Below, one piece after another: positions 2,295 to 31,471 of a stretch of 32,000 bases of DNA. The position numbers and the translations under genes are program-made. The stretch's first letter is position 1, and each line of letters begins with the position of its first letter. The stretch is taken from assembly GCF_000018105.1 (NCBI RefSeq), contig NC_009933.1, forward strand, positions 1-32,000, in the 5' to 3' direction. This stretch comes from Acaryochloris marina MBIC11017. GTDB lineage: Bacteria; Cyanobacteriota; Cyanobacteriia; Thermosynechococcales; Thermosynechococcaceae. The notes under the pieces are model-generated. The model was given only the letters and a program-made list of their open reading frames with translations. It did not search any database and was not told where the DNA came from.

Positions 2295-2451
2295 GGTTGT
2301 CATTTCGATCACGGGTTGTCGTTTTGTTCTGAAGGTATCGTATGAGGTCTGAAAAAGAGCTAACGCAAAGGGAGTGTACGCCAAATAATACGGTTCAAAT
2401 TTGGGGGTTGATCCGCCTTGTGGTTGTCGCGACATCGCCTATGGGGTTGAC
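2295..2451 (+). repeat. Subterminal direct repeats of the IS21 right end
   Basis: GGTTGTC at 2295, 2314 and 2422; GGTTGAT at 2406; GGTTGAC at 2445. Confidence 0.55.
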
Positions 2452-8176: not shown

Positions 8177-8321
8177 TTCCCTAGTCCCAAGAAATGGAGG
8201 TTCCAAGTAGAGGATAGGCAGAATGCTATGTGAAGCCCAAATGGAGAAGAGCTAGTAATTGGCAATATGGTTAACGCGCAGAACTACACTGCTAGTATTT
8301 TGTTGTTAACGACTGGCTTTT

Positions 8322-9566
8322 GTGATGGCGAATGAGGAACAGCTTTCTTTGCTCAAGCAGGGGGTTGAAGCGTGGAATAGTTGGCGAGAGGAGAATCTTG
8401 ATGTTGAGATAGACCTCAGCAGTGCCGACCTCCGCAATGCCGACCTCCGCGATGCCGACCTCCGCGATGCCGACCTCTTCAATGCCGACCTCTTCAATGC
8501 CAGCCTCAGCAATGCCAGCCTCAGCGGTGCCGACCTCACCAATGCCAACCTCCGCGATGCCAGCCTCAGTAATGCCGACCTCAGCAAGGCCAACCTCAGA
8601 TTTGCCAGCCTCAGATATGCCGACCTCAGCAAGGCCAACCTCAGCAATGCCAGCCTCTATGAAGCCAAACTCTTTGGAGCCAACCTCAGCAATGCCGACC
8701 TCAGACTTAGCAAAGCAATAAGAACCAACTTCATGGACGCTGACTTATCAGGAACTTGCATTACAGACTGGCATATTATCCGTGGAACTAACTTTGAATG
8801 TGTTAAATGTAGCTACATTTACCTTGGTTATAATTTAGAACAAGAGAAATTCACTGATCGGCTACCAGTAAACCCTGATCAAGAATTCAAGCCAGGGGAA
8901 TTTGAAGAGTGGATCAAAGACAGTGCTGAAGCCCAACAAACTATTGATCTAACCTTTACTGAGGGTATTGACTGGCAAGCTTTCTCTCAATCCTTGCAAG
9001 GAGTTCGTCAGAAATATCCTGACAGTGGAGTTGGCCTACAAGCAATAGAAGAGAAGGGTACAGCATTTGTAATTCGGCTGAAGACATCACTAGATGCAGA
9101 CCAAGGTGTAATTAAATCATCGCAGAAAGAACTGTATGAGACACAGCTACAGCTCCGTGAAGCCCAAGGAGAAAATAGAGTTTTACGAGAAATGTCAGAA
9201 GTCCTCGAAAAACTGGCAAGTCGGCCAACAACAAATGTTGACTTCAATAGAGAAACACAAGGTTCTGATAAGTCAAATCTCCTCATGACTTTCTTGTCAT
9301 GGTTTCAGAATGGTCAAGCGATCATTGCGATCATTGCTTTGGTACTTGGAGTAGCATCAACCTATTTCATCCCCAAAATGTTTCCCAATGGTTTCCCACC
9401 TGTTAATTCTGATCCTCAACCGGAAGTGATCCAAAGCGCACCAAGTTCACCAAGAACTGAAATTGGGATTGGAAAGAGGATGGCTCAGCAGGTGCATCAA
9501 TTTCTACTAACTAGTGAACAGGCAGATCGTCACGTAAATGCTGAGTCCTTGAAGCTAAATCAGTAA
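8322..9566 (+). CDS. Pentapeptide-repeat protein with coiled-coil region and C-terminal transmembrane helix
   Basis: ~25 A(D/N)LxX pentapeptides (SADLRNADLRDADLRDADL...). TM segment AIIAIIALVLGVASTYFIP. ATG at 8325. Confidence 0.85.
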   Translation: MMANEEQLSLLKQGVEAWNSWREENLDVEIDLSSADLRNADLRDADLRDADLFNADLFNASLSNASLSGADLTNANLRDASLSNADLSKANLRFASLRYADLSKANLSNASLYEAKLFGANLSNADLRLSKAIRTNFMDADLSGTCITDWHIIRGTNFECVKCSYIYLGYNLEQEKFTDRLPVNPDQEFKPGEFEEWIKDSAEAQQTIDLTFTEGIDWQAFSQSLQGVRQKYPDSGVGLQAIEEKGTAFVIRLKTSLDADQGVIKSSQKELYETQLQLREAQGENRVLREMSEVLEKLASRPTTNVDFNRETQGSDKSNLLMTFLSWFQNGQAIIAIIALVLGVASTYFIPKMFPNGFPPVNSDPQPEVIQSAPSSPRTEIGIGKRMAQQVHQFLLTSEQADRHVNAESLKLNQ

Positions 9567-9985: not shown

Positions 9986-11011
9986 ATGGAAACTGAATCA
10001 ATCGAAGCGATCGTGATCGACCTGGGGACATCCCTCACGAAAGTTCTGTACTACCAACAGGGGCAATATCACTTCTTTGCTCAATCGAGTTCCGTCCTAG
10101 AGCTAGACCATCGCAAGTATCAACAACATGCAGCTCACCCCCAGACCAAGACCCATGCCATCTGGACTGAAGGGGCGGGCTATCTCGTGGGGCGAGGGGC
10201 CTCTCAACCCTATGAAGAAGTGGACCTCTCTCAAACCAAAGCCACTTCAGCCATCGCTAAGGTACTCGCCGCAATCGGAGAAATCAAAGACCGGGTGAAC
10301 AGTGACAAGGCCATCAAACTGGAGAACGTCATCCTGTTGCTTCCCCTCAAAGAACGCAAAGAATATGAAACCCTAAAGACTGCCATCGTTAAAGCACTCT
10401 ATGGATTTGGGTTCAACGGCAAGACCACAAAGTTTTGGGTCGGACGGTTCAATATCCAATATGAGGGGTATGGCATCACCACGATTTCAACGGAAGAACG
10501 AGCAGCCTTCGCAGTCTTTGGTCAGAAAGATTTGACCATTGGGGCCATGAATCAGGGAGACTTAACCCCAAATATGAGTCAAACCCTCGTGGGTTGGGGC
10601 ATGTCCAAAGTCCTTGAAGAAGTGCAATACACCTTTGAGTCGGATGTGTATGGGGCCAAGTGCGTCTACTCCTATAACCAACGCCGCACCAACCTCAAGA
10701 AACTGATTCCCGCCGAGAAAGTTGAATTTGTCTCCGCTTCCATAGACCGGGCGTTGTCTTCGTCCTGGTATCAAATTGAGCGTAAATTGGATTCCTCCCA
10801 AGCCCTGATGGATGCCGTCACCATCTACGTCACCGGGGGCAGTTCTCAGCTCTGGCGCAAACAGCTCAAAGGGGTCTATGGTCGGCGGCTGAATTGCCTA
10901 GATGGCATCGCGAGAGAAATCGCAGAGACATTCCCCCAATTGGACAAAGACCCCATGATTCTGAGAATGGCTGATGCCTATCTGACGATTAGAGGAATGG
11001 TGGCCGCATGA
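9986..11011 (+). CDS. Actin-like segregation ATPase (ParM-like)
   Basis: IVIDLGTSLTKV (phosphate-1-like) and YVTGGSSQLW (adenosine-motif-like). Iterons lie upstream, and an ATGA stop/start overlap links it to the small RHH-like gene downstream. Confidence 0.6.
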   Translation: METESIEAIVIDLGTSLTKVLYYQQGQYHFFAQSSSVLELDHRKYQQHAAHPQTKTHAIWTEGAGYLVGRGASQPYEEVDLSQTKATSAIAKVLAAIGEIKDRVNSDKAIKLENVILLLPLKERKEYETLKTAIVKALYGFGFNGKTTKFWVGRFNIQYEGYGITTISTEERAAFAVFGQKDLTIGAMNQGDLTPNMSQTLVGWGMSKVLEEVQYTFESDVYGAKCVYSYNQRRTNLKKLIPAEKVEFVSASIDRALSSSWYQIERKLDSSQALMDAVTIYVTGGSSQLWRKQLKGVYGRRLNCLDGIAREIAETFPQLDKDPMILRMADAYLTIRGMVAA

Positions 11012-12366: not shown

Positions 12367-12454
12367 TTTCGGGGGTGGTGTTGGGGTTTGCGATCGCAAA
12401 TCCTGATACCAATACCCCCAAATCACACCTATTAAATACACTGAGCTTTTCACT

Positions 12455-12489
12455 TTTTCAGTTTCTAGAGAGATTCTATATTGCCTAAC
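12455..12489 (+). promoter_or_regulatory. Conserved promoter-like element, copy a
   Basis: TTTTCAGTTTCTAGAGAGATTCTATATTGCCTAAC: -35-like TTTTCA, 16-nt spacer holding heptads AGTTTCT/AGATTCT 11 bp apart, -10-like TATATT. Lies 16 nt before ATG 12505. Confidence 0.45.
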
Positions 12490-12504
12490 TATTGAGGATT
12501 AATC

Positions 12505-13056
12505 ATGTTCTTTTTTGCCTCTACAAGCCTGGTTTTTGGTCTTATGTCAATGGGTTTTTGCGGGTGGGCTATGAGGAACAATGCAGCTTACAAAAAGATT
12601 GATATCCAACTATTGGGCCTTATGCTTTCCGTGGTTTGCTCCAGTTCCCTTGGAATCGTAGCGGTTCTGTACCCCTACCTCGATAGCAGTGGCAGCGTAG
12701 CGGTCAAGCAGGAATTAATAGGGGAGATAGAACCAAACGACTCATCTGAGAGTTTGCCACTGTACTTGGATGTGTTGAACAAAACAGCTAGCCAAAAATT
12801 CGGTGATGAGCTTGTAACTTTATTCCAAGAGCCAAGCAGGTATGTCATTGTCAAAAAAAACGGACTTTTAAAGTCTGAGAAATCTAAAGACTTAAATACA
12901 CTGGCACAATCTGATTGCGATCAAATTCTTGAGATTGCTGGTAGTAAACGAATTTATATTCGCTATATAGACGTTGGAGCAGCATCAATAAAAGATTTCG
13001 ATTGTGATCTCTTGGCAGAGCTAGAGCGTAATCTCCCCATGAAACTGAGGCGTTAG
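12505..13056 (+). CDS. Membrane protein, paralog 1 (two N-terminal TM helices, Cys-containing C-terminal domain)
   Basis: 183 aa. C-terminal LNTLAQSDCDQILEIAG...FDCDLLAELER is shared with the next gene. Confidence 0.65.
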   Translation: MFFFASTSLVFGLMSMGFCGWAMRNNAAYKKIDIQLLGLMLSVVCSSSLGIVAVLYPYLDSSGSVAVKQELIGEIEPNDSSESLPLYLDVLNKTASQKFGDELVTLFQEPSRYVIVKKNGLLKSEKSKDLNTLAQSDCDQILEIAGSKRIYIRYIDVGAASIKDFDCDLLAELERNLPMKLRR

Positions 13057-15067: not shown

Positions 15068-15133
15068 GAGAGCGACATTGCCGATCTGAGGTACGCTACA
15101 CTCTTGCTCGTTTCGGGGGTGCCCACTTCCGCA

Positions 15134-15628
15134 TCATCTCAGCCTGATCCTCGATCCAATACCAGCCCCCGGAACCTGCCCAGCGGCGAGCGTCTTCTCT
15201 TCTTTTAGCATCGTCACCGATAGACCCGCATTGCCATTCTCAAACTGCTCGGAGACTTCCCGCCAACCTAGCTCCCGGTAAAACCTTGCAGAGCTGACCC
15301 TAGCGTTAGACCAAATCGGCCTTGCTTGATTGGACTCTTGCAAATCCTCAAGCAAGTATCGGATCAGTCCTGTGCCAATGCCCTGATTTCTCCAGCCTGG
15401 AGCTGTCGCCATTGCTCTAAGTCGCCACGCAGGTTCTCCGTGCCAGGTTGAGGGAATGAGGGTAGCGCAGCAGATGATTTCTCCATGCTGGTGTATTGCC
15501 CCATAATGACGGGTTTCCTGGTCTTGGTCTTCTGCAAAGATGACCTCAGCGATAGGCAAACCTGGCCGTAAAACTTGGTGGCGAAGTTTGAGGATATGAT
15601 CTGCGGTCGTCCTGGTGAGGGTGATCAT
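15134..15628 (-). CDS. GNAT-family N-acetyltransferase (intact copy; carries protospacer-like 15494-15525)
   Basis: Motif A RLRAMATAPGWRNQGIGTGLIRYLLE; 164 aa. Confidence 0.85.
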   Translation of the reverse strand: MITLTRTTADHILKLRHQVLRPGLPIAEVIFAEDQDQETRHYGAIHQHGEIICCATLIPSTWHGEPAWRLRAMATAPGWRNQGIGTGLIRYLLEDLQESNQARPIWSNARVSSARFYRELGWREVSEQFENGNAGLSVTMLKEEKTLAAGQVPGAGIGSRIRLR

Positions 15629-16713: not shown

Positions 16714-17382
16714 ATGATTTGGCGATCAAGATTGCTATTACTCACTTTTAGCAGTATTGTCTTAACTGGCAATATTCAGCTTCAATCAGTCAGAGCCGCC
16801 AACATTAAATATGACTTCACAGTAGATTTTCCACCATTACCTTTCCGACAGCCTTTGCAAGGCCAGAAAGGAGCTGGATTTCTTACCATAGATGATACTT
16901 CTCAGCCGATTTTCTCAGATACTAGGAGTGGTATTCCTCTTGATTTTTATGAAGTTGAGCAGCTAAATTTTAGTCTTCTAGGACAAACATTTACCAAGCA
17001 GGATGACATAGCAGCCAATAGACCATTACAACGCTTTCCACTTGTCGCGTTTCAAGGTGAACGACTTCAAGGTCTTGACTTTGCTGTAAACCGAAAAAGT
17101 CGAACAGGGCTTGGATTCATATTTCAAGTGGACACTTTAAGTTTGTCAGATGAATTTTTCTCACCCTCAGATGGAGATTTTACTGGTAATATCGGCGCTA
17201 TTGTAGGTCCTGGTTTTTCAAGGAGTATTGTTGCTGCTCAAGGTTCTGGACTATCACTTGGGCGCGTAAAATTTAGGCGAGTTCCTCTAGATGATGGTGC
17301 CGTAAGCATTGTTTTAAGTATCTTCCTAAGTTCCCTGATCGTTGTATATAGGCAACGTAAACAACAACAACCATTACCCTGA
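16714..17382 (+). CDS. Secreted protein with C-terminal TM anchor plus basic tail (PEP-CTERM-like sorting-signal shape)
   Basis: Signal peptide MIWRSRLLLLTFSSIVLTG. C-terminus VPLDDGAVSIVLSIFLSSLIVVYRQRKQQ. Purine-rich SD-like stretch upstream (GGGGGGAAATAAGG). Confidence 0.65.
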   Translation: MIWRSRLLLLTFSSIVLTGNIQLQSVRAANIKYDFTVDFPPLPFRQPLQGQKGAGFLTIDDTSQPIFSDTRSGIPLDFYEVEQLNFSLLGQTFTKQDDIAANRPLQRFPLVAFQGERLQGLDFAVNRKSRTGLGFIFQVDTLSLSDEFFSPSDGDFTGNIGAIVGPGFSRSIVAAQGSGLSLGRVKFRRVPLDDGAVSIVLSIFLSSLIVVYRQRKQQQPLP

Positions 17383-17507
17383 TACGCCATGCAACTTCCT
17401 CGTGCCAGGTCGAGGAAATGAGGGTGACGCAGCAAATGATTTCTCCCTGCTGGTTTAATCCCCCATAATGCCGGGTTTCATTGTCCTGGTCTTCTGCAAA
17501 GATGACC
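17377..17507 (-). pseudogene. GNAT acetyltransferase remnant (approx codons 28-72), truncated at 17507 by a transposon end
   Basis: Reads QVIFAEDQDNETRHYGGLNQQGEIICCVTLISSTWHEEVAWRIR versus the intact gene's EVIFAEDQDQETRHYGAIHQHGEIICCATLIPSTWHGEPAWRLR. DNA identity to 15416-15546 stops at 17507. Confidence 0.8.
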
Positions 17508-17635
17508 TGTCCATTATTTCTTTGTGTGCACAGCTTTAAGGAATTAGATGAACAATTTATGAATTTGCGTTGTTTCGATAATTAGCAGATAAAGAAAATA
17601 AAAATCTCCAGTTTTAAAGTTTTATATGCACAGCT
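17508..17635 (+). mobile_element. Tn7-like/CAST-like transposon end, copy 1 (terminus TGTCCATTATTTC)
   Basis: ~91% identical to 22079-22205. Begins exactly where GNAT homology stops. The 13-bp terminus has a perfect inverted copy at 22007-22019. Confidence 0.55.
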
Positions 17636-17673
17636 CCTTAATTTTTCATACCTAAATGAAAGGAACGTCAGCT

Positions 17674-17709
17674 CTTTCAACCCCTAGTACTTGTTGACAG
17701 CCATTGCAA
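17674..17709 (-). repeat. Solitary CRISPR-like repeat (type V-K-like 3' end)
   Basis: Minus strand reads TTGCAATGGCTGTCAACAAGTACTAGGGGTTGAAAG. It shares the GTTGCAATG... start and ...GGGTTGAAAG end with the repeats at 22252-22362. Confidence 0.45.
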
Positions 17710-17737
17710 AAATTACTGAAGTTAATCCAATCAATCC

Positions 17738-18037
17738 AAAAGAATCAGACTTTGACTTGGCCTTGAGGTTCTGGGGTTCCCCCTTGCTCGGGGGCAATTT
17801 AGTAGCTGCCACGACAGGTTTATCCTGTATTCTCAAACTAGACGCGGTGGCCTAGTTTAAGAACATTGCTCCCGGCATAAGGTGCGACCTTACCACCACA
17901 CTCAGACAAGTCCGAGTAGAAGCGGACAACTACTTGCATGTGAACACGAACATTTGTGAAACACATGGGCACTGGAAAGTAATGAAACTGGACCTTCATT
18001 TATCACAAATACTTTGATGCACCTGCGCGCGATAGTT
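17738..18037 (-). ncRNA. Cas12k-type tracrRNA homolog, apparently full length
   Basis: Minus strand holds colinear blocks resembling the ShCAST tracrRNA as I remember it: TAAATGAAGGTCCAGTTTCA, ACTTTCCAGTGCCC, GGTAAGGTCGCACC, and GTCGTGGCAGCTACTAAATTGCCCCCGAGCAAGGGGGAACCCC. AACCCC...CCTCAA is complementary to GGGTT/TTGAGG of the nearby repeats. Confidence 0.55.
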
Positions 18038-18126
18038 TTTATTCTACTCCTGTCGCTAAGACCTTCTCAGGCTATTCATTAAACGAAGTAAATCAAACTT
18101 TGAAAAAGACTTAACTCACCTGCCTA

Positions 18127-21100
18127 TCAACGATTTGATGCCTTTATTGCTTGTCGGCATACATCTAAATTATTTTGAACTGCGGCAGTATCGGGGTGTT
18201 CGTTGCCCAAGAGCTTCTGTGTCATCTCCAAGGCTTGTACATAGAGGGGTTCGGCTTCGCTGTACCGTCTTTGGTAGGCGTAGAGGTATGCCAAGTTATT
18301 AAGGCTTTGAGCGACATCGGGGTGTTTGTTGCCCAAGTGTTTCTGTCTCATCTCCAAGGCTTGTACATAGAGGGGTTCGGCTTCGCTGCACCGTCTTTGG
18401 CAGGCGTAGAGTCCTGCTAGGTTATTGAGGCTACTCGCGAGAAAAGGATGTTCGTTGCCCAAGAGCTTCTGGTTAATCTCTAGGGCTTGTTTGTAGAGGG
18501 GTTCCGCCTCCCTATAACGCCTTTGATTGGAATAGATTAATGCCAAGTTATTGAGGCTACTCGCGACATCAGGGTGTTCATCCCCAAATAGCTGCTGTCT
18601 CATCTCTAAGGCTTGTTTATGGAGGGGTTCCGCCTCCTCATAACGCCTTTGGTTTCTGTAAAGTTCTGCTAGGTTATTGAGGCTATTTGCTACATCGGAG
18701 TGCTCATGGCCCAGTAGCTTTAGTCTCATTTGTAGGGCTTGTTTATAGAGGGGTTCCGCCTCCTCATAACGCCCTTGGTCATCTAAAAGTCCAGCCAAAA
18801 CATTGAGACTTTGAGCGACATCGGGATGTTCATTCCCAAATAGCTTCTTTCTCATCTCTAAGGCTTGGATAAAGAGAGGTTCTGCCTCCGCATAACGTCC
18901 TTGGTTATCGTATAGTGTTGCCAGGTTATTGAGACTTTGAGCGACATCGGGGTGTTCATTCCCAAATAGCTTCTGTCTCATCTCTAAGGCTTGGATAAAG
19001 AGAGGTTCTGCCTCCTCATAACGCCCTTGGTTGTCGTAAAGGTTGGCCAGGCTATTGAGGCCTTGAGCGACATTGGGGTGTTCATTACACAATAATTTCT
19101 GGAATATTTTCAGTGCTTGAGTACAGAGGGGTTCTGCCTCCTTATACCGTCCTTGGTTGCAGTAGAGGTTTGCCAGGTTACTCAGGCTAGCAGCGACATC
19201 GGGATGTTCGTCACCCAATAGTTTATGGAATATTTCCAATGCTCGAGTATAGAGGGGTTCGGCATCCAAATACTGCTCTTGCAAGTAATAGAGAGCTGCT
19301 AAATTATTCAGACTCTTAGCGACATCGGGATGTTCATCACCCAATAGTCTTTGTTTCATTTCCAATGATTGGATAAAGAAGGTTTCAGCCTCTGCATAGC
19401 GTCTTTGATGGCCGTAGATTGTTGCCAGGTTACCAAGGCTTTTTGCGATATTGGGATGTTCATTGCCCAATAGCCTCTTGTACATATTTAGAGCTTGGGT
19501 ATTGAGAGATTCTGCCTCCTCATAACGTCCTTGGTTATCGTATAGTGTTGCCAGGTTATTGAGACTTTGAGCAATATCGGGATGTTCATTGCCCAATAGC
19601 CTCTTGTACATATTTAGAGCTTGGATATTGAGAGATTCTGCCTCCTCATAACGTCCTTGGTTATCGTATAGTGATGCCAGATTCGAGAGGCCAAGAGCGA
19701 AATCGGGGTGTTCGTTGCCCAAGAGCTTCTGATACATCTGCAACGCTTGCAAATAGAGAGGTTCTGCCTCCTTATAACGTCCCTGGTCTGTATAAAGGTT
19801 TGCCAGGTTATTGAGACTTTGAGCAATATCGGGATGTTCATTGCCTAATAGCCTCTTGTACATATTTAGAGCTTGGATATTGAGAGATTCTGCCTCCTCA
19901 TAACGTCCTTGATAGTAATAGAGGGCAGCCAGGTCATTAAGACTAGTAGCAGTATTTTTATGCTCACTACCAAATTTATGTTGACACTGTTTGAGACATC
20001 TTTGCCTCCAAGGCAATGCTAAATCATAATTACCTTGTCCTTCATAAAATCGACCGATACCGACATAAGGCCAAATCAATTCATCATCACTGAGATGGTC
20101 AATCCATTGTCTGATGAGTTCCTCGAGATGAGGAATGCTGCCTTGTATCTCAGCAATTACATCAATCGTTGATCTGCCATCAATCCTCTGAGCAATACCA
20201 ACCATTGCATTGCAATAAGCCGTTTTGAGGGATTCCCCCTTTTCAGTAAGCTCATCCAATTTGAGTCGAAAGAACTCCTGCACAATTTGATGAAGTTGAT
20301 AGGTGCCCTTTCCTATTCGCTTGAGAAGGTTCCGCTTCAATAACCCTTTATTTCTAGCCTTTACGATTTCCCTGACAGATGTCTCTGGCAAACAAGATTC
20401 AACATGCTTCCACGGGATAGGAGCTATAGAAAATATTCCTAACAAACAGGCTAATTCTTTCTCAAAATCCTTAAGTTTCTTCCAACTCAACTCCAATGCT
20501 GCAGCAACTCCAAGTTGGGCTGTCATGCCGTCTTCTCTCTCACATAAAGCTTCAGCATGTAGCCGCATTGATTCGAGTTCTTGGATTAAATCGTGGATGG
20601 TTAGATCTTGGTCGTTAGACAGGTATCGTCCTAATAGTTCCAGGCCTAATGGCAGATTACCCACCCAAGCACACAACGATTTAGCATCCTCTAGTTGAAT
20701 TTGAATTCGATCTTGTCCAACTAAGGATCCCAGTAGTTCTAACGCACTTTCATTATCGAGTTCCTCCAGGCAAAGAGAGCGGACAGACCGACCAAAATCA
20801 AGTCGGGTGGTGATCAGGGCTTTAAACCGTGGGTTCCATAGGGGAAGACAGGAGGCAACAAGCTCATACTCAACTACATCGTCAACAACGATTAAGACCT
20901 CCCCTTTGGGCCATCGTTGCCAAATGAAACTGACCTGGGCCTTTGCTTCGAGATCATCTGGGGGTTTCATTCCCAGATGGCTTTTAGAAAAATCAATGAT
21001 TTGAGTGGCGATTTCTTGATCTCGTGACCGTAGCCAACAAATCCCACCTGGGTAAATCTTCTGGCTTAAGGACCGTTGAGCATATTCCCAGGCCAGCTCA

Positions 21101-21288
21101 GTTTTCCCAATCCCTCCCATCCCTTCAAGAGCAGTGATGGCGATTCGCTGGTTACTTTGCAGTTGCTCATGCAGTTGGTTGATCTGGGAGTCTCGACCAA
21201 CGAAGGCAACAGCGCCACTTGGAGGGAGGTTATTTGGTGTATCAGTTGGGGGATGTAACTTTGTCCGGTCCCAGTCGGACGACTCTAG
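18127..21288 (-). CDS. NB-ARC (STAND) NTPase with ~15 KLC-type TPR repeats; frame open upstream to the in-frame TGA at 21289-21291
   Basis: ...NLPPSGAVAFVGRDSQINQLHEQLQSNQRIAITALEGMGGIGKTELA (P-loop). 42-aa TPR units GNEHPDVAQSLNNLA.LY..QGRYEEAEPL. The first ATG/GTG/TTG after the TGA (21120) falls inside the P-loop. Confidence 0.8.
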   Translation of the reverse strand, partial: LESSDWDRTKLHPPTDTPNNLPPSGAVAFVGRDSQINQLHEQLQSNQRIAITALEGMGGIGKTELAWEYAQRSLSQKIYPGGICWLRSRDQEIATQIIDFSKSHLGMKPPDDLEAKAQVSFIWQRWPKGEVLIVVDDVVEYELVASCLPLWNPRFKALITTRLDFGRSVRSLCLEELDNESALELLGSLVGQDRIQIQLEDAKSLCAWVGNLPLGLELLGRYLSNDQDLTIHDLIQELESMRLHAEALCEREDGMTAQLGVAAALELSWKKLKDFEKELACLLGIFSIAPIPWKHVESCLPETSVREIVKARNKGLLKRNLLKRIGKGTYQLHQIVQEFFRLKLDELTEKGESLKTAYCNAMVGIAQRIDGRSTIDVIAEIQGSIPHLEELIRQWIDHLSDDELIWPYVGIGRFYEGQGNYDLALPWRQRCLKQCQHKFGSEHKNTATSLNDLAALYYYQGRYEEAESLNIQALNMYKRLLGNEHPDIAQSLNNLANLYTDQGRYKEAEPLYLQALQMYQKLLGNEHPDFALGLSNLASLYDNQGRYEEAESLNIQALNMYKRLLGNEHPDIAQSLNNLATLYDNQGRYEEAESLNTQALNMYKRLLGNEHPNIAKSLGNLATIYGHQRRYAEAETFFIQSLEMKQRLLGDEHPDVAKSLNNLAALYYLQEQYLDAEPLYTRALEIFHKLLGDEHPDVAASLSNLANLYCNQGRYKEAEPLCTQALKIFQKLLCNEHPNVAQGLNSLANLYDNQGRYEEAEPLFIQALEMRQKLFGNEHPDVAQSLNNLATLYDNQGRYAEAEPLFIQALEMRKKLFGNEHPDVAQSLNVLAGLLDDQGRYEEAEPLYKQALQMRLKLLGHEHSDVANSLNNLAELYRNQRRYEEAEPLHKQALEMRQQLFGDEHPDVASSLNNLALIYSNQRRYREAEPLYKQALEINQKLLGNEHPFLASSLNNLAGLYACQRRCSEAEPLYVQALEMRQKHLGNKHPDVAQSLNNLAYLYAYQRRYSEAEPLYVQALEMTQKLLGNEHPDTAAVQNNLDVCRQAIKASNR

Positions 21289-21711
21289 TCAATTCTGAAT
21301 ATTGATAGTTTCTGCTTGGTTTACTACTCCACCAGAAATCTTATTTTGATAATTTGTCCCACCATAGTTATTTTGAACCTGGCTACTGTTGTCTTCTATG
21401 ACATGCAAATTGATTTCATGGGCTAACTGCTGAATCTCTTTAGCAAAGTCCTCAGACTCTAACATCTCCACATTCAAATATGAGATGACCGCATTCAAGG
21501 CTTCAGTATTGCCTGCATCTGCTTTTTGGAGAGCGGCTTCAGCTTTCTCTTTCCCTTTGAATTTTGACCATATTTTGGTCCGTAGTTGATCAATTAATGC
21601 ATAAGCTGATGTTGCAAACTTTTTCCCAGTTTCTGAACCAGCGGCTTCAATGGCTTTTTGAAAGGCCAATGAGACAATGGCTGCTGCTGTGAAAGTCAAT
21701 GGTTCAGTCAT
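21289..21711 (-). CDS. N-terminal helical domain plus Q/N/G-rich linker of the STAND protein, ended by an in-frame TGA
   Basis: MTEPLTFTAAAIVSLAFQKAIE...QVQNNYGGTNYQNKISGGVVNQAETINIQN*. Same reading frame as 18127..21288. ATG 21711 lies within the ORF that opens at TTG 21780. Confidence 0.7.
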   Translation of the reverse strand: MTEPLTFTAAAIVSLAFQKAIEAAGSETGKKFATSAYALIDQLRTKIWSKFKGKEKAEAALQKADAGNTEALNAVISYLNVEMLESEDFAKEIQQLAHEINLHVIEDNSSQVQNNYGGTNYQNKISGGVVNQAETINIQN

Positions 21712-21823
21712 AGCACTTAGAATAAAGGCATCCAATAGATTATCAGGTGATTTTCTAGGATTTACGCTCACCTTCAGCAAGTTTTGAGAATCAGTTGATC
21801 AATCGAGAATCGGCTGATGGGAA

Positions 21824-22019
21824 GAAATAGTGCAACTAATTCCTTAAAGAATTTATTTTTCTCTCAGAAATAGTGCATCCATCTCTTGAAAAATCATTCT
21901 TGAGTATCATTACCTATAAATCAGTAAATCACTTTCTGAATATAGTTTATAGCGTTTCAAAGTTGTGCAGCTATTTCTATAAATTGCTCATTCTTGTGCG
22001 TTTAGCGAAATAATGGACA
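21824..22019. mobile_element. Candidate opposite transposon end (terminus ...GAAATAATGGACA at 22019)
   Basis: GAAATAGTGCA-type sites at 21824 and 21867 (+) and 21965 (-). The terminal 13-mer at 22007-22019 is a perfect inverted copy of 17508-17520. CTAATTCCTTAAAG (21836-21849) is inverted relative to 17534-17547. Confidence 0.45.
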
Positions 22020-22078
22020 CTTTTCAAATTCATTAGTTGTTGTACAGTACATCGCTATTTGCACAGATGTACATATTT

Positions 22079-22205
22079 TGTCCATTATTTCTTTATTTGC
22101 ACAGCTTTAAGGAATTAGATGAACAATTAATGAATTTGCGCCGTTTCGTTAATTAGCAGATTAAGAAAATAAAAACCTCCAGTTTTAAAGTTTTAAACGC
22201 ACAAA
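22079..22205 (+). mobile_element. Tn7-like/CAST-like transposon end, copy 2
   Basis: TGTCCATTATTTC... with ~91% identity to 17508-17635. Confidence 0.55.
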
Positions 22206-22251
22206 AGCTCTTCAGAAAATTGAAGAAATCAAAAATTGGGAAGCTGACGTT

Positions 22252-22362
22252 CTTTTCAACCTTTACCAACCCTCAAATGTCATTGCAACCCAGGACCAGG
22301 AAACCCGGCATTATGGGGCATTACTTTCAACCCATACCAACCCTCAAATGTCATTACAACCC
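22252..22362 (-). CRISPR. Mini CRISPR array (repeat-spacer-repeat), type V-K-like repeats; spacer matches the GNAT gene
   Basis: Minus strand: GGGTTGTAATGACATTTGAGGGTTGGTATGGGTTGAAAG / TAATGCCCCATAATGCCGGGTTTCCTGGTCCT (32 nt, 22323-22292) / GGGTTGCAATGACATTTGAGGGTTGGTAAAGGTTGAAAAG. Confidence 0.55.
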
Positions 22363-22520
22363 ACCTTGAAATTAGCCTAGTCCTGGTAAGACTTTGAGCG
22401 ATTAAATTGCGGATCACAATCATATTGAGTGATCTTGGTAAAGAGGCATCCAAAAGCATTAGGGGCTATTTGCCCAAGTCCTTACTCATAGGGGGGGTTG
22501 AAGAATGCGCCAATCCATCT

Positions 22521-22635
22521 AAAGAAATTAGAATTTGATTTGGCCTTGAGGTTCTGGGGTTCCCCCTTGCTCGGGGGCAATTTAAGCGCTGCCACGACAG
22601 GTATTCCTGTATTCTCAAGCTAGTGCAAAAGCCTA
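22521..22635 (-). ncRNA. Cas12k-type tracrRNA homolog, 3' part only (5' part removed at the IS630 junction)
   Basis: ~85-90% identical to 17738-17856. Contains TTGCCCCCGAGCAAGGGGGAACCCCAGAACCTCAAGG on the minus strand. Confidence 0.5.
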
Positions 22636-22732
22636 GTCCTAGATTTTGAAGATAACCCATCAGTTATGCAAAATTGTACAGACATCAGATAGTTTCAGAG
22701 AAACCCTCTTGTTCAAGATCCTTTCTCTGCCA

Positions 22733-23230
22733 ATGCCAACTCCCAAAGCCACTCCTATTGAGCTATCACAGCAACAACACCATTGTTTGCTCCAAATCGT
22801 TCGACAAACCACCAATCCTTATCGCTTGGTGCGTCGAGCGAGCATCATCCTATCAGCCGCCTCAGGCAAAAGTAACACCCAGATTAGCCGTCAATGGCAA
22901 CTCGACCGCAACCAAGTTCGCTATTGGCGTCAGCGCTGGGTAGATAACCAAGAGCGTCTTGCCCTTTGTGAGCAAGTAGACGACAGCAAACCAGCATTGA
23001 ACCAGCAAGTGTTGGCGACCTTAACAGATGCCCCACGTCCAGGTGTCCCACCCACCTTTACCCCAGAGCAGGTGGTCCAAATTGTGGCCATTGCCTGTGA
23101 ATCTCCTCAGAACTCAGCCCGGCCTGTGAGTCAATGGACGCCTGAAGAGATTGCTGATGAAGCGATTAAACGCGGCATCGTCCCTCACCTGTCGGCCAGC
23201 AGTGTGAGACGTTTTTTGGGGAGAGGCTGA
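22733..23230 (+). CDS. IS630 transposase, N-terminal HTH part (orfA)
   Basis: MPTPKATPIELSQQQHHCLLQIVRQTTNPYRLVRRASIIL...; ATG 22733 within the ORF that opens at 22646. Confidence 0.8.
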   Translation: MPTPKATPIELSQQQHHCLLQIVRQTTNPYRLVRRASIILSAASGKSNTQISRQWQLDRNQVRYWRQRWVDNQERLALCEQVDDSKPALNQQVLATLTDAPRPGVPPTFTPEQVVQIVAIACESPQNSARPVSQWTPEEIADEAIKRGIVPHLSASSVRRFLGRG

Positions 23231-23300
23231 GCTGCAGCCTCATCGGAGTCGCTATTGGCTCAATGCTAACCCTGAGGACCCAGAAGCGTTCGAGGCGAAA

Positions 23301-23981
23301 GTGCGCCAGGTTTGCCAACTGTATGAATCAGCAGCTGAACTGGAAGCTCACCAGATTCACCTTGTTAGTACGGATGAAATGACTGGCATTCAGGCGCTTG
23401 AACGACTGCACCCAGACCAAGCTATGCAACCAGGTCAACCGCGTCGTTTGGAATTTGAATATGAGCGGCATGGTACCCTCAGTCTCATCGCCAACTGGCA
23501 TGTGGCTCTGGGAAAGGTGATTGCGCCTTCTATCGGACCCACGCGAAAAGAATTTGACTTTGCCAATCATATTGCCAAGACAGTTGAAACAGCACCGGAC
23601 GATGGGTGGGTTTTTCTGCTCGACCAGCTCAATACCCATCGATCTGCTTCCCTTGTGCGATGGGTCGCTGTCTGTTGCGGTATTGATTCAGATTTAGGCG
23701 TTAAGGGTCAATCTGGTATCCTTCAATCGATGGAAACTCGCACGGCCTTCTTGAGCGACCCCAGCCATCGGATCCGATTTGTTTATATCCCCAAACATAC
23801 CTCCTGGCTCAATCAGATTGAATGCTGGTTTAGTATTTTGGTGCGTCGATTGATTCGTCGAGGAAATTTCACCTCCACGGATGATTTGCAACAGCGCATC
23901 CTCGATTTTATTGAATATTTCAATCACACTATGGCCAAACCTTTCCAGTGGCAATTTAAGGGATTCACGCCGCATGGATAA
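23301..23981 (+). CDS. IS630 transposase, DDE part (orfB; frame open from 23208)
   Basis: The upstream in-frame sequence reads GEAELQPHRSRYWLNANPEDPEAFEAKV. DDE_3-type body (STDEMTGIQ..., LLDQLNTH, NQIECWFS). Needs a +1 shift near T6G4 at 23212-23221. Confidence 0.8.
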   Translation: MRQVCQLYESAAELEAHQIHLVSTDEMTGIQALERLHPDQAMQPGQPRRLEFEYERHGTLSLIANWHVALGKVIAPSIGPTRKEFDFANHIAKTVETAPDDGWVFLLDQLNTHRSASLVRWVAVCCGIDSDLGVKGQSGILQSMETRTAFLSDPSHRIRFVYIPKHTSWLNQIECWFSILVRRLIRRGNFTSTDDLQQRILDFIEYFNHTMAKPFQWQFKGFTPHG

Positions 23982-24011
23982 CTGATGAACTATTTACAGA
24001 TCTATGGACTA

Positions 24012-24462
24012 GGACGCGAGTAGAGTCAGTACGCTGCTGCCCTCTGGCTTTAACCAGTCCTTTGTTCTGACAGCATTGCAGCAATTTGTCTAGTAGTAGA
24101 TGCTCTAGTTCACCAGCCATAAGGCGGTCTCGAAATTCGCTCAGGACGCTGAAGTCAAAGCCTTCGTCAGTTAGATCCAGGCCTAGCAGATATTTCCAAT
24201 CAATGCGAGATCGTACTGCTTCAGCTGCTTGGCGGTCAGATAGGTTTTCCCGAAATTGAAGCACGGTTACCAAAGCCAGTCGCCATGGCGGTAGCCCTGG
24301 CTGACCAGTAACAGAAAACAGGGCTTGGAAGTCAGCATCGTCAAATACTGGGCCGATTTCATCTCGCAACGTCAGGTATGGATTGCCTTTGGGAAAAGCG
24401 GCTTTAGCGACGCGAACCGTTTCTGACGGCACTGGGTTAATGGACTGCGGACTCAGGGACAT
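24012..24462 (-). pseudogene. IS1182/IS5-like transposase N-terminal fragment, truncated by IS630
   Basis: DUF772-type N-terminus (...RIDWKYLLGLDLTDEGFDFSVLSEFRDRL...QQRTDSTRVL) ends at the IS630 right junction. Confidence 0.7.
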
Positions 24463-24669: not shown

Positions 24670-25296
24670 ATGCTGATTGGCTACGCACGAGTATCGAAGG
24701 TTGATGGCTCTCAGGTTCTCGATCTGCAGATGGATGCATTGCTTGAAGCCGGTGTGCCAGAAAATAGGATTTACAAGGACAGAGTTTCTGGCAAGACGGC
24801 TCGACGACCAGGGCTAAAGGCTTGTCTCAAGGCGCTGCAACCTGGCAATACGCTGGTGGTTTGGAAGTTAGACCGTTTGGGGCGAGATCTCAAGCATCTC
24901 GTCGATGTTGTTGGTGAGCTACGGCAACGGGAGGTAGGATTTAAGGTACTCGCAGGTGCTGGTGCAGAGATTGATACCACCACTGCCAATGGGCGCTTGT
25001 TCTTTGCGGTCTTTGCGGCGCTGGCAGAGTATGAACGAGAATTAATTGCTGAACGAACACGGGCTGGATTGAAGGCGGCACGAGCGAGAGGGCGGATGGG
25101 CGGACGACCGCGCAAAATGGATGTTGCTACGCTTCAGATGGCGATGAGTGCCATGAGTGACCCAAGAGCGTGTGCTAAGGAGATAGCTCAGAAGCTTGGG
25201 ATGACGACAGCGACGCTTTACACCTATGTCAACGGAGACGGTTCCGCAAAGGCCGCTGGTCTACGTTTGCTTGATAGGTCGCGAGAAGTCCAATAG
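24670..25296 (+). CDS. Serine recombinase (resolvase/invertase family)
   Basis: MLIGYARVSKVDGSQVLDLQ (catalytic Ser motif), VVWKLDRLGRD, ALAEYERELIAERTRAGL, and a C-terminal HTH. Confidence 0.9.
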   Translation: MLIGYARVSKVDGSQVLDLQMDALLEAGVPENRIYKDRVSGKTARRPGLKACLKALQPGNTLVVWKLDRLGRDLKHLVDVVGELRQREVGFKVLAGAGAEIDTTTANGRLFFAVFAALAEYERELIAERTRAGLKAARARGRMGGRPRKMDVATLQMAMSAMSDPRACAKEIAQKLGMTTATLYTYVNGDGSAKAAGLRLLDRSREVQ

Positions 25297-30422: not shown

Positions 30423-30487
30423 TCTCCCTGGCCTGGGTGGTGCCTAACCACCCGCCGCTACATTCCAACTTCAACGAGATTTCAACA

Positions 30488-31471
30488 ATGAACCCTAAAG
30501 ACTATGATCGGACGATCATCATGTTCTCTGGTGGCAAAGATTCTTTGGCCTGCATCCTCTGGGCCATCGAGAACAACTGCCCCAAAATTGAGCTTTGGCA
30601 TCACCTTGTAGACGGGTTGCCCGTGCAAGGCCAGACCGCTTCCACCCTAATGGATTGGCCGATCACATCAGGCTACTGCAAGGCTGTGGCCCGTTTGCTT
30701 TCTCTCCCAATATATTTTTCTTGGCTGGAAGGTGGTTTTGAGCGTGAGATGAATCGCTCCAACCAAGCCAAAGCAAAAACTTGGTTTGAAACGCCTGATG
30801 GACTGCACTCTGCTGGGGGCAATGGTGGTAAGCAATCTACTCGCCAGAAATTTCCTCAAATCTCCGCTGATTTAAGCGTCCGTTGGTGTTCGGCATATCT
30901 CAAGGTTGATGTCGGTGCGATCGCAATCCGAAACCAATCCCGATTCAACGATTCCAAAACTTTGGTGATTACTGGGGAACGGGCCGAGGAATCACCCGCA
31001 CGAGCCAATTATGCAGAGTTTGAGCCAGACCGCACAGACAACCGTGATGGTAAATCCAATCGCCATGTGGATCGATTTCGCCCGATCCATGGCTGGAAGG
31101 AATCGGAGGTCTGGGCCATCATCCAACGACATGGCATCATCCCCCATCCTGCCTATCATCTCGGCTGGGGCCGATTGTCCTGTATGAGCTGCATCTTTGG
31201 TAGTCCTAACCAGTGGGCGACCATTCGCAAGATTGCGCCAGCGCATTTTGAGCGGATTGCCAACTATGAGCAGAGATTTTGCACCACGATTCAACGCAAG
31301 CGTTCAGTGCATGAGCTGGCTAATCTGGGCACACCTTACGCCGAAGCCAATAATAGCCAACTCGTGAAAATGGCTCTCTCTAGTGAGTGGGGGGATTATC
31401 CCATCTGGACCCATCCCCAAGCATGGGCTTTGCCTGCCGGGGCTTATGGCGAGAGCAATGGACCGACTTAA
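30488..31471 (+). CDS. PAPS-reductase-like PP-loop ATPase family protein
   Basis: IIMFSGGKDSLACILW (SGGxDS PP-loop), SVRWCSAYLK, RLSCMSCIFGS (CxxC). ATG 30488 within the ORF that opens at GTG 30437. Confidence 0.8.
   Translation: MNPKDYDRTIIMFSGGKDSLACILWAIENNCPKIELWHHLVDGLPVQGQTASTLMDWPITSGYCKAVARLLSLPIYFSWLEGGFEREMNRSNQAKAKTWFETPDGLHSAGGNGGKQSTRQKFPQISADLSVRWCSAYLKVDVGAIAIRNQSRFNDSKTLVITGERAEESPARANYAEFEPDRTDNRDGKSNRHVDRFRPIHGWKESEVWAIIQRHGIIPHPAYHLGWGRLSCMSCIFGSPNQWATIRKIAPAHFERIANYEQRFCTTIQRKRSVHELANLGTPYAEANNSQLVKMALSSEWGDYPIWTHPQAWALPAGAYGESNGPT

Follow-up and report, generated by a model that had tools for sequence, protein, structure and literature searches.

Two loci on plasmid pREB8 of Acaryochloris marina MBIC11017 derive, to judge from their sequences, from the tracrRNA of type V-K (Cas12k) CASTs, and neither is accompanied by cas12k. 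Both lie in the window, i.e., the whole stretch of 32,000 nucleotides of pREB8 that was analyzed. They are probably not free-standing tracrRNA genes but leftover left-end modules of V-K CASTs, one of which would have reached its present site by guided insertion of a small element (element B), and their RNAs are most likely relics.

Two tracrRNA-derived sequences without cas12k

An earlier note on this DNA had proposed two homologs of the Cas12k tracrRNA in the absence of cas12k. This view agrees with a 21-nt motif shared by both copies and with a tblastn search using 25 Cas12k proteins, which was negative in the window. The features concerned are the following:

17757..17841, minus strand: copy 1, well-supported 3' part of the tracrRNA, common to copy 2, with a motif specific to Cas12k loci in GTDB; small hairpins, CTGTCGTGGCAGCTACTAAATTG (17817 to 17795), CCCCCGAGCAAGGGGGAACCC (17794 to 17774), tail CAGAACCTCAAGGCCAA
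17842..18037, minus strand: 5' and central portion proposed for copy 1, tracrRNA homology unproven; blocks GGTAAGGTCGCACC (17894 to 17881), TTACTTTCCAGTGCCC (17982 to 17967), TATCGCGCGCAGG (18034 to 18022)
18041..18070, minus strand: promoter-like site, CTGAGA and TAGAAT separated by 18 nt, directly preceding the putative 5' end of copy 1
22510..22631, minus strand: copy 2, 3' fragment of the tracrRNA, motif at 22577 to 22557, 5' side cut by IS630
22632..24013, plus strand: IS630-family element truncating copy 2, with terminal inverted repeats and ORFs

The two minus-strand copies have about 115 nt in common (17841 to 17727 versus 22623 to 22510; identities 18/19 and 84/95) and both carry CTGTCGTGGCAGC..AAATTG-CCCCCGAGCAAGGGGGAACCC-CAGAACCTCAAGGCCAA, in which CCCCCGAGCAAGGGGGAACCC is the 21-nt hairpin/anti-repeat core. 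Across the 3' hairpin and the first part of anti-repeat 2 (CCCCC-loop-GGGGG-AACCC, in the flanking context GUGGCUAC..AAU), both copies match Cas12k-linked tracrRNAs at 21 of 21 positions. Compared with tracrRNAs located 3' of cas12k genes, the shared stretch shows 88-91% identity across 33 nt and 78-80% across 54 nt. Copy 2 is indeed cut by IS630 to its 3' ~115 nt, with the break at 22632 according to the terminal inverted repeats (22632-22670 and 24013-23975) rather than at 22636 as had been claimed; beyond IS630 lies an IS5-like fragment, not the remainder of the tracrRNA. The overlapping spurious ORF (22466..22660, minus strand) exists as described.

In 185,579 reference genomes (GTDB), nearly all occurrences of the motif pattern lie some 225 nt 3' of cas12k, that in the tracrRNA of ShCAST among them. 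Among the GTDB species representatives, CCCCCGANCAAGGGGGAACCC has 38 matches, 35 of them cyanobacterial; three of the 38 are chance matches in high-GC coding DNA, as are both metagenome matches of a 4-C variant. At most of the CCCCCGANCAAGGGGGAACCC loci, an ORF of 613-653 aa ends about 225 nt upstream, and these ORFs are Cas12k according to NF038191 (E-values down to 1e-290). Of the cyanobacterial loci with the 21-nt motif, the 31 whose upstream sequence could be used all carry a Cas12k coding sequence there, and the window carries none (best tblastn E-value 0.026), so the absence of cas12k is real and unusual. The upstream neighbor of copy 1 is an NB-ARC/TPR gene and that of copy 2 is IS630. 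In viral and metagenome contigs, the sole matches to the motif and repeat of the window type were chance ones in coding DNA.

The earlier note had also described copy 1 as colinear with the ShCAST tracrRNA. ShCAST was reportedly described by Strecker in 2019, and its 218-nt scaffold has an exact match in S. hofmanni UTEX 2349 (locus L030), 3' of ShCas12k. Likeness at the 3' end is confirmed (the 33 nt mentioned above), but the further blocks at 17842-18037 do not rise above chance. A search with covariance models, which the note had suggested as a check, gave no significant match in the window with any of three models: with R1, the copy 1 site scored 4.9 bits (E = 5.5, rank 7); R2 had no match at E <= 10; and a third, small model of six tracrRNAs from distant clades only reached 8.2 bits (E = 3.7), which ties the likeness to the V1 type in particular. 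Nor did nhmmer, with tracrRNA profiles that lacked the motif, find anything significant in the window. A block-chain test anchored on the motif gave p = 0.009 for copy 1 with all blocks kept and p = 0.075 with the motif-adjoining block left out, and the pairwise scores (z = 1.6 versus ShCAST; z = 0.4 versus Gloeothece) were low compared with the positive control, Gloeothece versus ShCAST (z = 10.8), which clearly passes both the chain and the pairwise tests. Rfam yielded nothing relevant at gathering and E-value thresholds, which is uninformative because it holds no Cas12k tracrRNA family (ShCAST control).

The 5' module of the tracrRNA (P1-P5, anti-repeat 1 CUUUC, and the GGGUUAGUUUGAC pseudoknot region), which contacts the GAAAG of the crRNA and Cas12k, varies hardly at all among 26 diverse, genuine tracrRNAs but was undetected in copy 1. 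The central GGUaAGGUgCGC..AGCAA block has a possible counterpart in GGTAAGGTCGCACC (17894 to 17881), which is identical at 14/14 positions to a metagenomic Cas12k tracrRNA (L046) and at 13/14 to L040 and L045. A central-block HMM ranked GGTAAGGTCGCACC second in the window (E = 1.9 over 64 kb); if the search space is cut to the 300 nt upstream of the motif, the value is roughly 0.01 by our own arithmetic. The identity to L046 and the HMM rank lend modest support to a tracrRNA-like central block. Overall, it is only the 3' ~45-60 nt of copy 1, perhaps together with this 14-nt block, that are demonstrably tracrRNA-like, and copy 1 as a full-length homolog is not supported by these comparisons.

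The complementarity of AACCCC-AGAA-CCTCAA to the nearby repeats is present as claimed (AACCC:GGGTT and CCTCAA:TTGAGG), but neither alignment score nor duplex energy, the latter from the co-folding of tracrRNA and repeat that had been suggested, is better than in shuffled controls (p 0.06-0.5). The whole 296-nt stretch of copy 1 folds better than all 200 shuffles (z = -3.6), and its 5' 191 nt fold no better than shuffles (z = -0.8). The promoter-like site is the sole sigma-70-like site in 17400-18300 and is to be read as a consensus match only, because shuffles contain 1.6 such sites on average; its TAGAAT hexamer also precedes the tracrRNA of ShCAST. Promoter-like site and predicted fold together suggest that copy 1 could still be an expressed, structured RNA.

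Left-end modules and element B

The left-end modules, a spacer matching a GNAT gene, and the non-autonomous element around copy 1 are all missing from the earlier note. They comprise the following features:

17508..17640, plus strand: left end of element B, terminus TGTCCATTATTTCTTTGTGTGCACAG; further subterminal site GAACAATTTATGAATTTG at 17550
17657..17710, minus strand: degenerate 37-nt repeat (17710 to 17674, ending GGGGTTGAAAG) with 17-nt spacer AGCTGACGTTCCTTTCA (17673 to 17657)
18127..21780, minus strand: cargo of element B; 163-aa N-terminal ORF, in-frame TGA, NB-ARC and 14 TPR repeats (NLR/STAND-like)
21825..22019, minus strand: right end of element B, terminus from 22019 TGTCCATTATTTCGCTAAACGCACAAG, then a second site
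22020..22078: junction of 59 bp that joins the right end of element B to the TGTCCA site at the left end of module A
22079..22203, plus strand: left end of module A, TGTCCATTATTTCTTTATTTGCACAG..., 92% identical to 17508-17632
22235..22360, minus strand: mini CRISPR array of module A; R1 (22360 to 22324), 34-nt spacer (22323 to 22290), R2 (22289 to 22252, ending GGTTGAAAAG), then 17-nt spacer AACGTCAGCTTCCCAAT

In V-K CASTs, tracrRNA, array, single repeat, and left end follow each other in this order, and an anchor spacer of 17 nt is part of the known architecture (PMC9938897). Both copies show the canonical left-end order of a tracrRNA 3' part, repeats ending in GGGTTGAAAG, and a Tn7-like left end; GGGTTGAAAG occurs just twice in the window, both times at the expected place (expected count 0.09). 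The V-K arrangement of an array of ~37-nt repeats ending in GGGTTGAAAG and then a single repeat-spacer unit beside the left end is present in the window, and in module A, R1 ends 246 nt from where the motif begins (canonical loci: 244-255 nt). The repeats had been placed at 22252-22362 and were confirmed at 22252-22360, with lengths of 37 and 38 nt and a period of 71 nt; they are not recognized by Rfam CRISPR-DR15, which recognizes those of ShCAST. The unit at 17657..17710 resembles the single repeat plus anchor spacer of V-K CASTs, and neither of the 17-nt spacers (AGCTGACGTTCCTTTCA and AACGTCAGCTTCCCAAT) has a target within the window. The end sites of these modules are of the TGTCCATTATTTC and TGTACA types; within the 59-bp junction lie one end site of the TGTACA type (22041-22066) and, in inverted orientation, a copy of an inner left-end site (22025-22041).

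Element B spans 4.5 kb (17508-22019) and is bounded by 13-bp terminal repeats, the first 13 nt of the right-end terminus being identical to those of the left; an inverted copy of CTTTAAGGAATTAG lies further inside the right end. The left end shares 92% identity with 22079-22203 and 95% with pREC3 of A. marina MBIC10699. The GNAT homology breaks off precisely at 17508 (TGTCC), and on three other Acaryochloris plasmids, homology to the right end starts exactly at its TGTCC or 8 nt before, with different flanks. The copy of MBIC10699 is flanked by AAAAA on both sides, i.e., by a 5-bp duplication, whereas the copy in the window has no target-site duplication (AAAAG versus GGTCA). A 5-bp target duplication is typical of Tn7-like elements. 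Besides those of element B, there are three more right-end junctions and one more left-end junction with different flanks. The element family has evidently moved, to judge from three or more independent right-end junctions and the 5-bp duplication around one copy. With its two inverted ends, copies at different sites, and no transposition genes, element B corresponds to a non-autonomous Tn7-like/CAST element.

The cargo is a single gene with Pfam domains NB-ARC and TPR_10/TPR_12 and one in-frame stop at codon 164; PADLOC assigned it a generic TPR match only and no named defense system. Homologous NB-ARC/TPR genes occupy the same position in L039, L050, and L051, and the relatives from MBIC10699, S15, and Moss Beach have lost tracrRNA and repeat altogether. 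Between strains, the left end is conserved much better (92-95% identical) than the cargo (71%), a difference that may point to selective pressure on the ends or to exchange among elements in the recent past. A blastn search of the module against PLSDB matched the left end alone, on three Acaryochloris plasmids, and found no tracrRNA homolog.

The window contains no sequence of cas12k, tnsB, tnsC, or tniQ and thus lacks the gene set of an autonomous type V-K CAST. The ORF at 28-1722 was considered as TnsB and rejected, because its match to a "Mu transposase C-terminal" domain is that of an IS21 IstA, with IstB adjoining. Neither Cas12k, V-K-like TnsB, nor tnsBCQ was found on any Acaryochloris plasmid in PLSDB, and no cognate TnsB for element B emerged from the searches. 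A Cas12k profile search of 5.8 billion proteins had 965 matches, of which the best 120 were listed; a Gloeothece-type query had 59 matches, none of them named Acaryochloris. The open-access full-text papers searched contain no link between Acaryochloris and Cas12k.

A probable guided insertion into a GNAT gene

The sole spacer of the module A array (spacer 1) matches the DNA immediately outside the left end of element B, which belongs to a GNAT acetyltransferase gene, and also an intact paralog of this gene:

15134..15628, minus strand: intact GNAT paralog, also carrying the protospacer of spacer 1
17371..17507, minus strand: GNAT gene fragment (codons ~28-73), 83% identical to the intact gene

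On the plus strand of the fragment, a GGTT PAM (17452-17455) precedes the protospacer (17456-17489), to which the spacer aligns without gaps at 31/34 positions (mismatches at positions 5, 25, and 27). The intact gene has the PAM GGTG (15490-15493) and a protospacer at 15494-15527 (plus strand), also with 31/34 identities; the E-values of the spacer for the two targets are 6e-7 and 9e-9. The distance from the PAM of the fragment to the left end of element B is 52 nt, and the published range for V-K CASTs is 46-82 nt, with a GTN PAM (PMC9938897). The matching spacer belongs to module A and not to element B.

The spacer/target geometry is canonical because the array-proximal end is the left end, as shown both by PMC9938897 and by the CAST of Gloeothece PCC 7822, which has the same orientation and a target about 85 bp from the end. 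An assignment of the array-proximal end as the right end, with targets at the tnsB end, was rejected because both sources show the opposite. PAM and protospacer, with 52 nt between the PAM and the left end, have the geometry of a Cas12k-guided insertion, and we read them as the footprint of such an RNA-guided event, which argues that the guide system once worked in this lineage. The mismatch of the spacer at position 5 to the adjoining target sits less well with this reading. Position 15085, 49 bp past the stop codon of the intact GNAT gene, corresponds to the right-end junction of A. marina S15 and is unoccupied in the window.

Origin of the modules and comparison with known systems

According to the explanation that we consider probable, module A (22040-22631) would have kept the final ~120 nt of its tracrRNA along with the leader, the array of two repeats and one spacer, and the left end, and an IS630-linked rearrangement would have taken away its upstream part, including cas12k. 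Module B (17508-18037) would be the left-end part of the non-autonomous element B, which, apart from the tracrRNA-derived sequence and a single degenerate repeat-spacer unit, appears to carry only the NB-ARC/TPR gene. Together with Cas12k and TnsB/TnsC/TniQ provided in trans, an A-type crRNA may once have steered element B or its ancestor into the GNAT gene. The insertion was probably replicative; a cointegrate would explain why the right flank of element B is not GNAT DNA and why a target-site duplication, whose absence otherwise speaks against this explanation, is missing. With neither cas12k nor a recognizable 5' module of the tracrRNA, the RNAs are most likely non-functional today. Signs of decay are the truncation of copy 2 by IS630, the undetectable 5' module of copy 1, and the sister elements devoid of tracrRNA and repeat; the promoter-like site, the fold of the 296-nt stretch, and the better conservation of the left end relative to the cargo run counter to a relic.

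Some of the same evidence would fit functional orphan guide modules, in which copy 1 is a divergent but complete tracrRNA used in trans, together with the adjoining repeat-spacer unit and the module A array, by Cas12k/TnsB/TnsC/TniQ encoded elsewhere in MBIC11017, on the chromosome or on a different plasmid, so that element B stays mobile and self-guided. The well-placed promoter-like site and the significant predicted structure of the whole copy 1 RNA point this way, as do the identity of the central block to a genuine tracrRNA (L046), the outcome of the motif-anchored chain test with all blocks (p = 0.009), the well-conserved element ends, the junctions and the duplication that document movement of the family, and the footprint of a guide system that once worked. 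We nevertheless regard such use in trans as unlikely, given that a 5' module near-invariant in 26 tracrRNAs is undetected in copy 1, whose 5' 191 nt are no more structured than shuffles, that the Acaryochloris plasmids in PLSDB encode neither Cas12k nor a V-K-like TnsB, that the papers searched do not link Acaryochloris to Cas12k, and that sister elements have lost the guide module.

Co-option of the tracrRNA-derived sequence as a structured 3' UTR, terminator, or regulatory RNA of the upstream NB-ARC/TPR gene would suit its location 90 nt past the stop codon on the same strand and its stable hairpins, but 17400-18300 contains no intrinsic-terminator-like site, and the homologous genes on three other plasmids do without the sequence, which is therefore not needed for this gene; co-option is very improbable. 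A chance match of a G/C-rich hairpin at loci unrelated to CASTs finds some backing in the chance matches among the GTDB and metagenome hits and in the failure of models without the motif, or from distant clades alone, to reach significance in the window. Those chance matches, however, lie in high-GC coding DNA, whereas the window is low-GC cyanobacterial DNA. An exact match of 20 bases is expected about 6e-8 times in 64 kb (our own arithmetic). GGGTTGAAAG repeats at the canonical offset, Tn7-like ends, and spacer, PAM, and target at the canonical distance independently indicate a V-K CAST, and this context refutes coincidence for practical purposes.

The closest known counterpart is the V1-type tracrRNA of V-K CASTs such as ShCAST and AnCAST (Ziemann 2023, PMC9938897; Ziemann 2025, PMC12416283). 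CCCCC-GAGCAA-GGGGG-AACCC is identical, the preceding ~23 nt are similar, and orientation and spacing to a V-K-type array, single repeat-spacer unit, and left end agree, as does the TAGAAT -10-like hexamer upstream of copy 1. By contrast, the window has no cas12k upstream, and the 5' module GCGCC...GGGUUAGUUUGAC...CUUUCUGACCC is undetected in its copies. The tail past AACCC reads CAGAACCUCAA instead of the nCCC of the V1 type, and it is only in their 3' GGGTTGAAAG that the 37-nt repeats agree with known ones.

Like MITE-like or mini elements, laboratory mini-Tn7, and CAST donors, element B has two ends, cargo only, and no transposase, and like other non-autonomous derivatives, its family occupies several insertion sites among related plasmids, with a 5-bp duplication at one copy. 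Unlike the constructs, the family is natural, measures 3.8-4.5 kb, and carries an NLR-like gene and, in one copy, a guide-RNA module. A non-exhaustive search of open-access full text revealed no natural cas12k-less V-K derivative that keeps tracrRNA and crRNA. It is conceivable, if rather doubtful, that Acaryochloris plasmids harbor a family of natural "mini-CASTs" that ride on Cas12k/TnsB/TnsC/TniQ in trans, the member on pREB8 programming its own insertion via its own tracrRNA and crRNA genes; their layout may be right end, NLR-like defense gene, and left end. If the guide module did function in trans, this would represent a new lifestyle for a mobile element, namely to carry only its RNA guide.

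Array-spacer-guided ("horizontal") insertion of CASTs was reportedly described by Saito in 2021. Such insertion into mobile elements is also the subject of a preprint by Hsieh & Peters (10.1101/2021.02.06.429022). Here, too, the spacer that matches a plasmid gene beside the left end, with a GTN PAM, is an ordinary array spacer rather than the anchor spacer; the differences are that spacer and inserted copy reside in two diverged modules (89-92% identical) and that the inserted copy no longer has the spacer. If our preferred reading of a guided insertion by now-decayed modules is true, pREB8 naturally records how a plasmid gene was hit by Cas12k-guided transposition, with guide, PAM, target, and distance still readable, which would support the proposed plasmid-directed pathway of CAST spread and place V-K CAST activity in a genus without a Cas12k link in the papers searched. 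It would also imply that V-K CASTs can decay to small, cargo-only elements that are bounded by internal end sites and recur on related plasmids, with a bearing on CAST end recognition and on the spread of defense-type cargo.

Decay of V-K CASTs as such has precedents. Twelve degenerated Cas12k genes were set aside in PMC9938897, and our own searches found degenerate loci in Nostoc carneum (L002) and in L026, L032, and L033. As in the window, their tracrRNA is truncated or rearranged while array and left end are still there; each of them, however, keeps recognizable cas12k coding sequence, of which the window has none, and in the window one module lies inside a small element with both transposon ends. 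In the locus of N. carneum, a fusion joins codons 1-390 of cas12k to the final ~85 nt of the tracrRNA.

The tracrRNA 3' motif and its extent in copy 1

The earlier note had described two homologs of the Cas12k (type V-K) tracrRNA on the minus strand, of which one (copy 1, about 18037 to 17755) was thought to be colinear with the whole RNA and the other (copy 2, 22521–22635) to be truncated at its 5' end. The core of this finding is real, its extent was overstated, and its context is richer than had been noted. Both loci are best read as relic guide-RNA modules of V-K CRISPR-associated transposons (CASTs), one of them on a non-autonomous, NLR-bearing derivative that owes its position to a past RNA-guided insertion; a current function of the modules is unlikely.

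The copies have ~115 nt in common (minus-strand 17841 to 17727 and 22623 to 22510; 18/19 and 84/95 identical). Each consists of CTGTCGTGGCAGC..AAATTG, the 21-nt hairpin/anti-repeat core CCCCCGAGCAAGGGGGAACCC (17794 to 17774; 22577 to 22557), and CAGAACCTCAAGGCCAA. A scan for CCCCCGANCAAGGGGGAACCC across 185,579 bacterial and archaeal species, with one genome each, returned 38 matches, 35 of them in cyanobacteria; the remaining three are chance matches in high-GC DNA. The matches include S. hofmanni UTEX 2349, where the 218-nt ShCAST tracrRNA scaffold is present exactly, directly 3' of a 643-aa ORF scoring 959 bits against NCBIfam NF038191 (Cas12k). At most other loci, a 613–653-aa ORF ends ~225 nt upstream of the motif. 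Wherever the sequence upstream of a cyanobacterial motif was usable (31 loci), tblastn detected Cas12k coding sequence in it; in low-GC cyanobacterial DNA, the 21-mer is therefore a marker specific to the 3' end of the Cas12k tracrRNA. In the region of the motif, identity of the window copies to Cas12k-linked tracrRNAs is 88–91% over 33 nt and 78–80% over 54 nt.

The colinearity of copy 1 up to 18037 was tested without the motif. It was not matched by a profile of the 5' 195 nt of the tracrRNA (nhmmer), and in a covariance model built on nt 1–128 of 23 Cas12k-linked tracrRNAs the expected site ranked seventh (4.9 bits, E = 5.5). The 5' module is kept in all seven further tracrRNAs (Gloeothece PCC 7822, Crocosphaera, Xenococcus, and metagenomic contigs) that were retrieved via Cas12k proteins and not via the RNA motif, and the invariant positions among 19 diverse tracrRNAs include GCGCC, GG..GUUU, and CUUUC.G..CC; a covariance model from a set including the protein-retrieved tracrRNAs found nothing at the expected site. 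A motif-anchored block-chain test gave p = 0.009 for copy 1 with all blocks but p = 0.075 without the block adjoining the motif; the Gloeothece tracrRNA, as positive control, scored above every null window. In pairwise alignment, 18060 to 17825 scored z = 1.6 with ShCAST and z = 0.4 with Gloeothece, compared with z = 10.8 for the control, Gloeothece against ShCAST. The 5' 191 nt of copy 1 fold no better than shuffles (z = -0.8); for the whole 296 nt, z = -3.6. Colinearity of copy 1 with the whole tracrRNA is thus not supported; its homology is solid for the last ~45–60 nt and possibly extends to ~140 nt. There is some support for one upstream element, GGTAAGGTCGCACC (17894 to 17881), which agrees at 14/14 positions with its counterpart in a metagenomic tracrRNA and ranks second among the matches of a central-block HMM. 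The proposed anti-repeat pairing is present but does not exceed shuffled controls.

Left-end modules and missing machinery

GGGTTGAAAG, the 3' end characteristic of V-K repeats, occurs just twice in the window (0.09 expected), both times on the minus strand and downstream of the two motifs. The repeats form part of two left-end modules, module A around copy 2 and module B around copy 1 (17508–18037):

22360 to 22324 and 22289 to 22252, minus strand: module A repeats, flanking a 34-nt spacer
17710 to 17674, minus strand: degenerate 37-nt repeat of module B, followed by a 17-nt spacer

The first repeat of module A ends 246 nt past the motif start (244–255 nt in canonical loci). After each module comes a 125-nt block (17508–17632 and 22079–22203; 92% identical to each other) with repeated 26-nt sites beginning TGTCCATTATTTC. 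In V-K CASTs, the left end is the one that adjoins the array, with a single truncated repeat and a 17-nt 'anchor' spacer in between, and the matching protospacer is located just outside the left end, with a GTN PAM 46–82 nt from the end (Ziemann et al. 2023, PMC9938897). Likewise, a spacer of the Gloeothece CAST matches DNA just outside the array-adjoining TGTACA end. When 17657–17683 is compared with 22242–22262, the 17-nt spacer of module B, AGCTGACGTTCCTTTCA, proves to be the reverse complement (16/17) of a module A stretch made up of the last bases of repeat 2 and the initial 10 nt of the spacer that follows. The arrangement resembles a small inversion with GAAAG and CTTTC as its arms; the repeat-spacer unit of module B can also form a 6-bp self-hairpin.

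Cas12k-like sequence is absent from the window, as previously noted; TnsB, TnsC, and TniQ are absent as well. A tblastn search of 72,556 plasmids with one Cas12k and one V-K TnsB returned no Acaryochloris record, and full-text searches found no paper linking Acaryochloris with Cas12k. Degenerate V-K loci elsewhere all keep cas12k sequence, so the window, which has none, is more extreme. In Nostoc carneum NIES-2107, cas12k codons 1–390 run directly into the final ~85 nt of the tracrRNA, an internal deletion having joined codon ~390 to the central block; in Scytonema sp. PCC 10023, the tracrRNA is reduced to its 3' hairpin. Both are natural 5'-truncated tracrRNAs with intact arrays and anchor units. 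A metagenomic V-K CAST repeats the last cas12k bases and the tracrRNA after the array (~5060–5450 in locus coordinates, about 700–1090 nt past the cas12k stop at 4360), which suggests tandem or nested CAST copies.

Element B, its insertion site and its relatives

Module B lies at one end of a 4.5-kb non-autonomous derivative, element B (17508–22019). Its inverted terminus at 22019 on the minus strand (TGTCCATTATTTCGCTAAACGCACAAG) is identical (13/13) to the left-end terminus, and the termini enclose nothing but the tracrRNA-like sequence, the repeat-spacer unit, and an NB-ARC/TPR gene. Two GNAT acetyltransferase sequences match the 34-nt module A spacer, each at 31/34 positions: 15494–15527, preceded by GGTG, and plus-strand 17456–17489, preceded by GGTT (17452–17455). 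The former belongs to the intact gene:

15134–15628, minus strand: intact GNAT gene

The latter lies in a GNAT fragment (codons ~28–73, 83% identical to the intact gene) whose homology ends at 17508, the exact start of the module B TGTCCATTATTTC, which sets the distance from PAM to left end at 52 nt. This succession of PAM, protospacer, and left end is the geometry of Cas12k-guided insertion, and the matching guide spacer survives in neighbouring module A.

In the window, element B lacks a target duplication, and the DNA beside its right end does not come from a GNAT gene. V-K CASTs, which have no TnsA, form cointegrates that leave every copy bordered by donor DNA on one side and by target DNA on the other; cointegrate formation would explain both features. 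Beyond the right end, a 59-bp stretch (22020–22078) with a TGTACA-type end site separates element B from the TGTCCA site of the module A left end, so that the two ends nearly abut. The site resembles the inner sites, and the stretch also carries a different left-end site in inverted orientation; it may derive from a longer 'full' left end or from a third end fragment.

Relatives of element B occur in A. marina MBIC10699 pREC3, an A. marina S15 plasmid, and Acaryochloris sp. 'Moss Beach' pMB04. All three become homologous to the window at the right-end TGTCC or 8 nt earlier; their flanks differ, and tracrRNA and repeat are absent. The pREC3 copy also has the left end, with the same end position, and AAAAA flanks the element on both sides. 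[quoted passage not shown] The S15 NLR unit, which lacks a left end, lies between direct repeats (8676–9000 / 12388–12632 of the retrieved locus) that duplicate ~123 bp from the 3' end region of GNAT (window 15207–15085). GNAT genes are repeatedly linked with NLR-bearing units of this type.

In the NB-ARC/TPR gene of the window, a single in-frame TGA (21289–21291) separates a 163-aa N-terminal domain without family match from the NB-ARC/TPR body; this means either a pseudogene or two separate genes, and two genes are also what the annotation of the homologs in other strains shows. Thirteen tandem 126-nt (42-aa) TPR units with 65–79% identity occupy 18190–20001.

Plasmid setting

Exact protein matches assign the window to plasmid pREB8 (AM1_H locus tags; 120,693 bp) of A. 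marina MBIC11017. Mobile elements are abundant in the window, which also encodes plasmid transfer (TrwC relaxase) and partition (ParM-like) functions:

28–2281: IS21 istA/istB
2439–3584: ISL3 transposase
4247–8206: TrwC relaxase/AAA_30 helicase (1319 aa) with C-terminal DUF3854 domain
9986–11011: ParM-like gene
22632–24013: IS630
23965–24462: IS5-like fragment
24670–25296: serine recombinase

Two ORFs (22646–23230 and 23301–23981) make up the split IS630 transposase. The far side of IS630 carries an N-terminal fragment of an IS5-like transposase and not the remainder of the tracrRNA; its flanks therefore stem from different contexts. A 344-aa protein (30437–31471) with weak PAPS-reductase/DndC-like matches may belong to a locus for DNA modification or defence.
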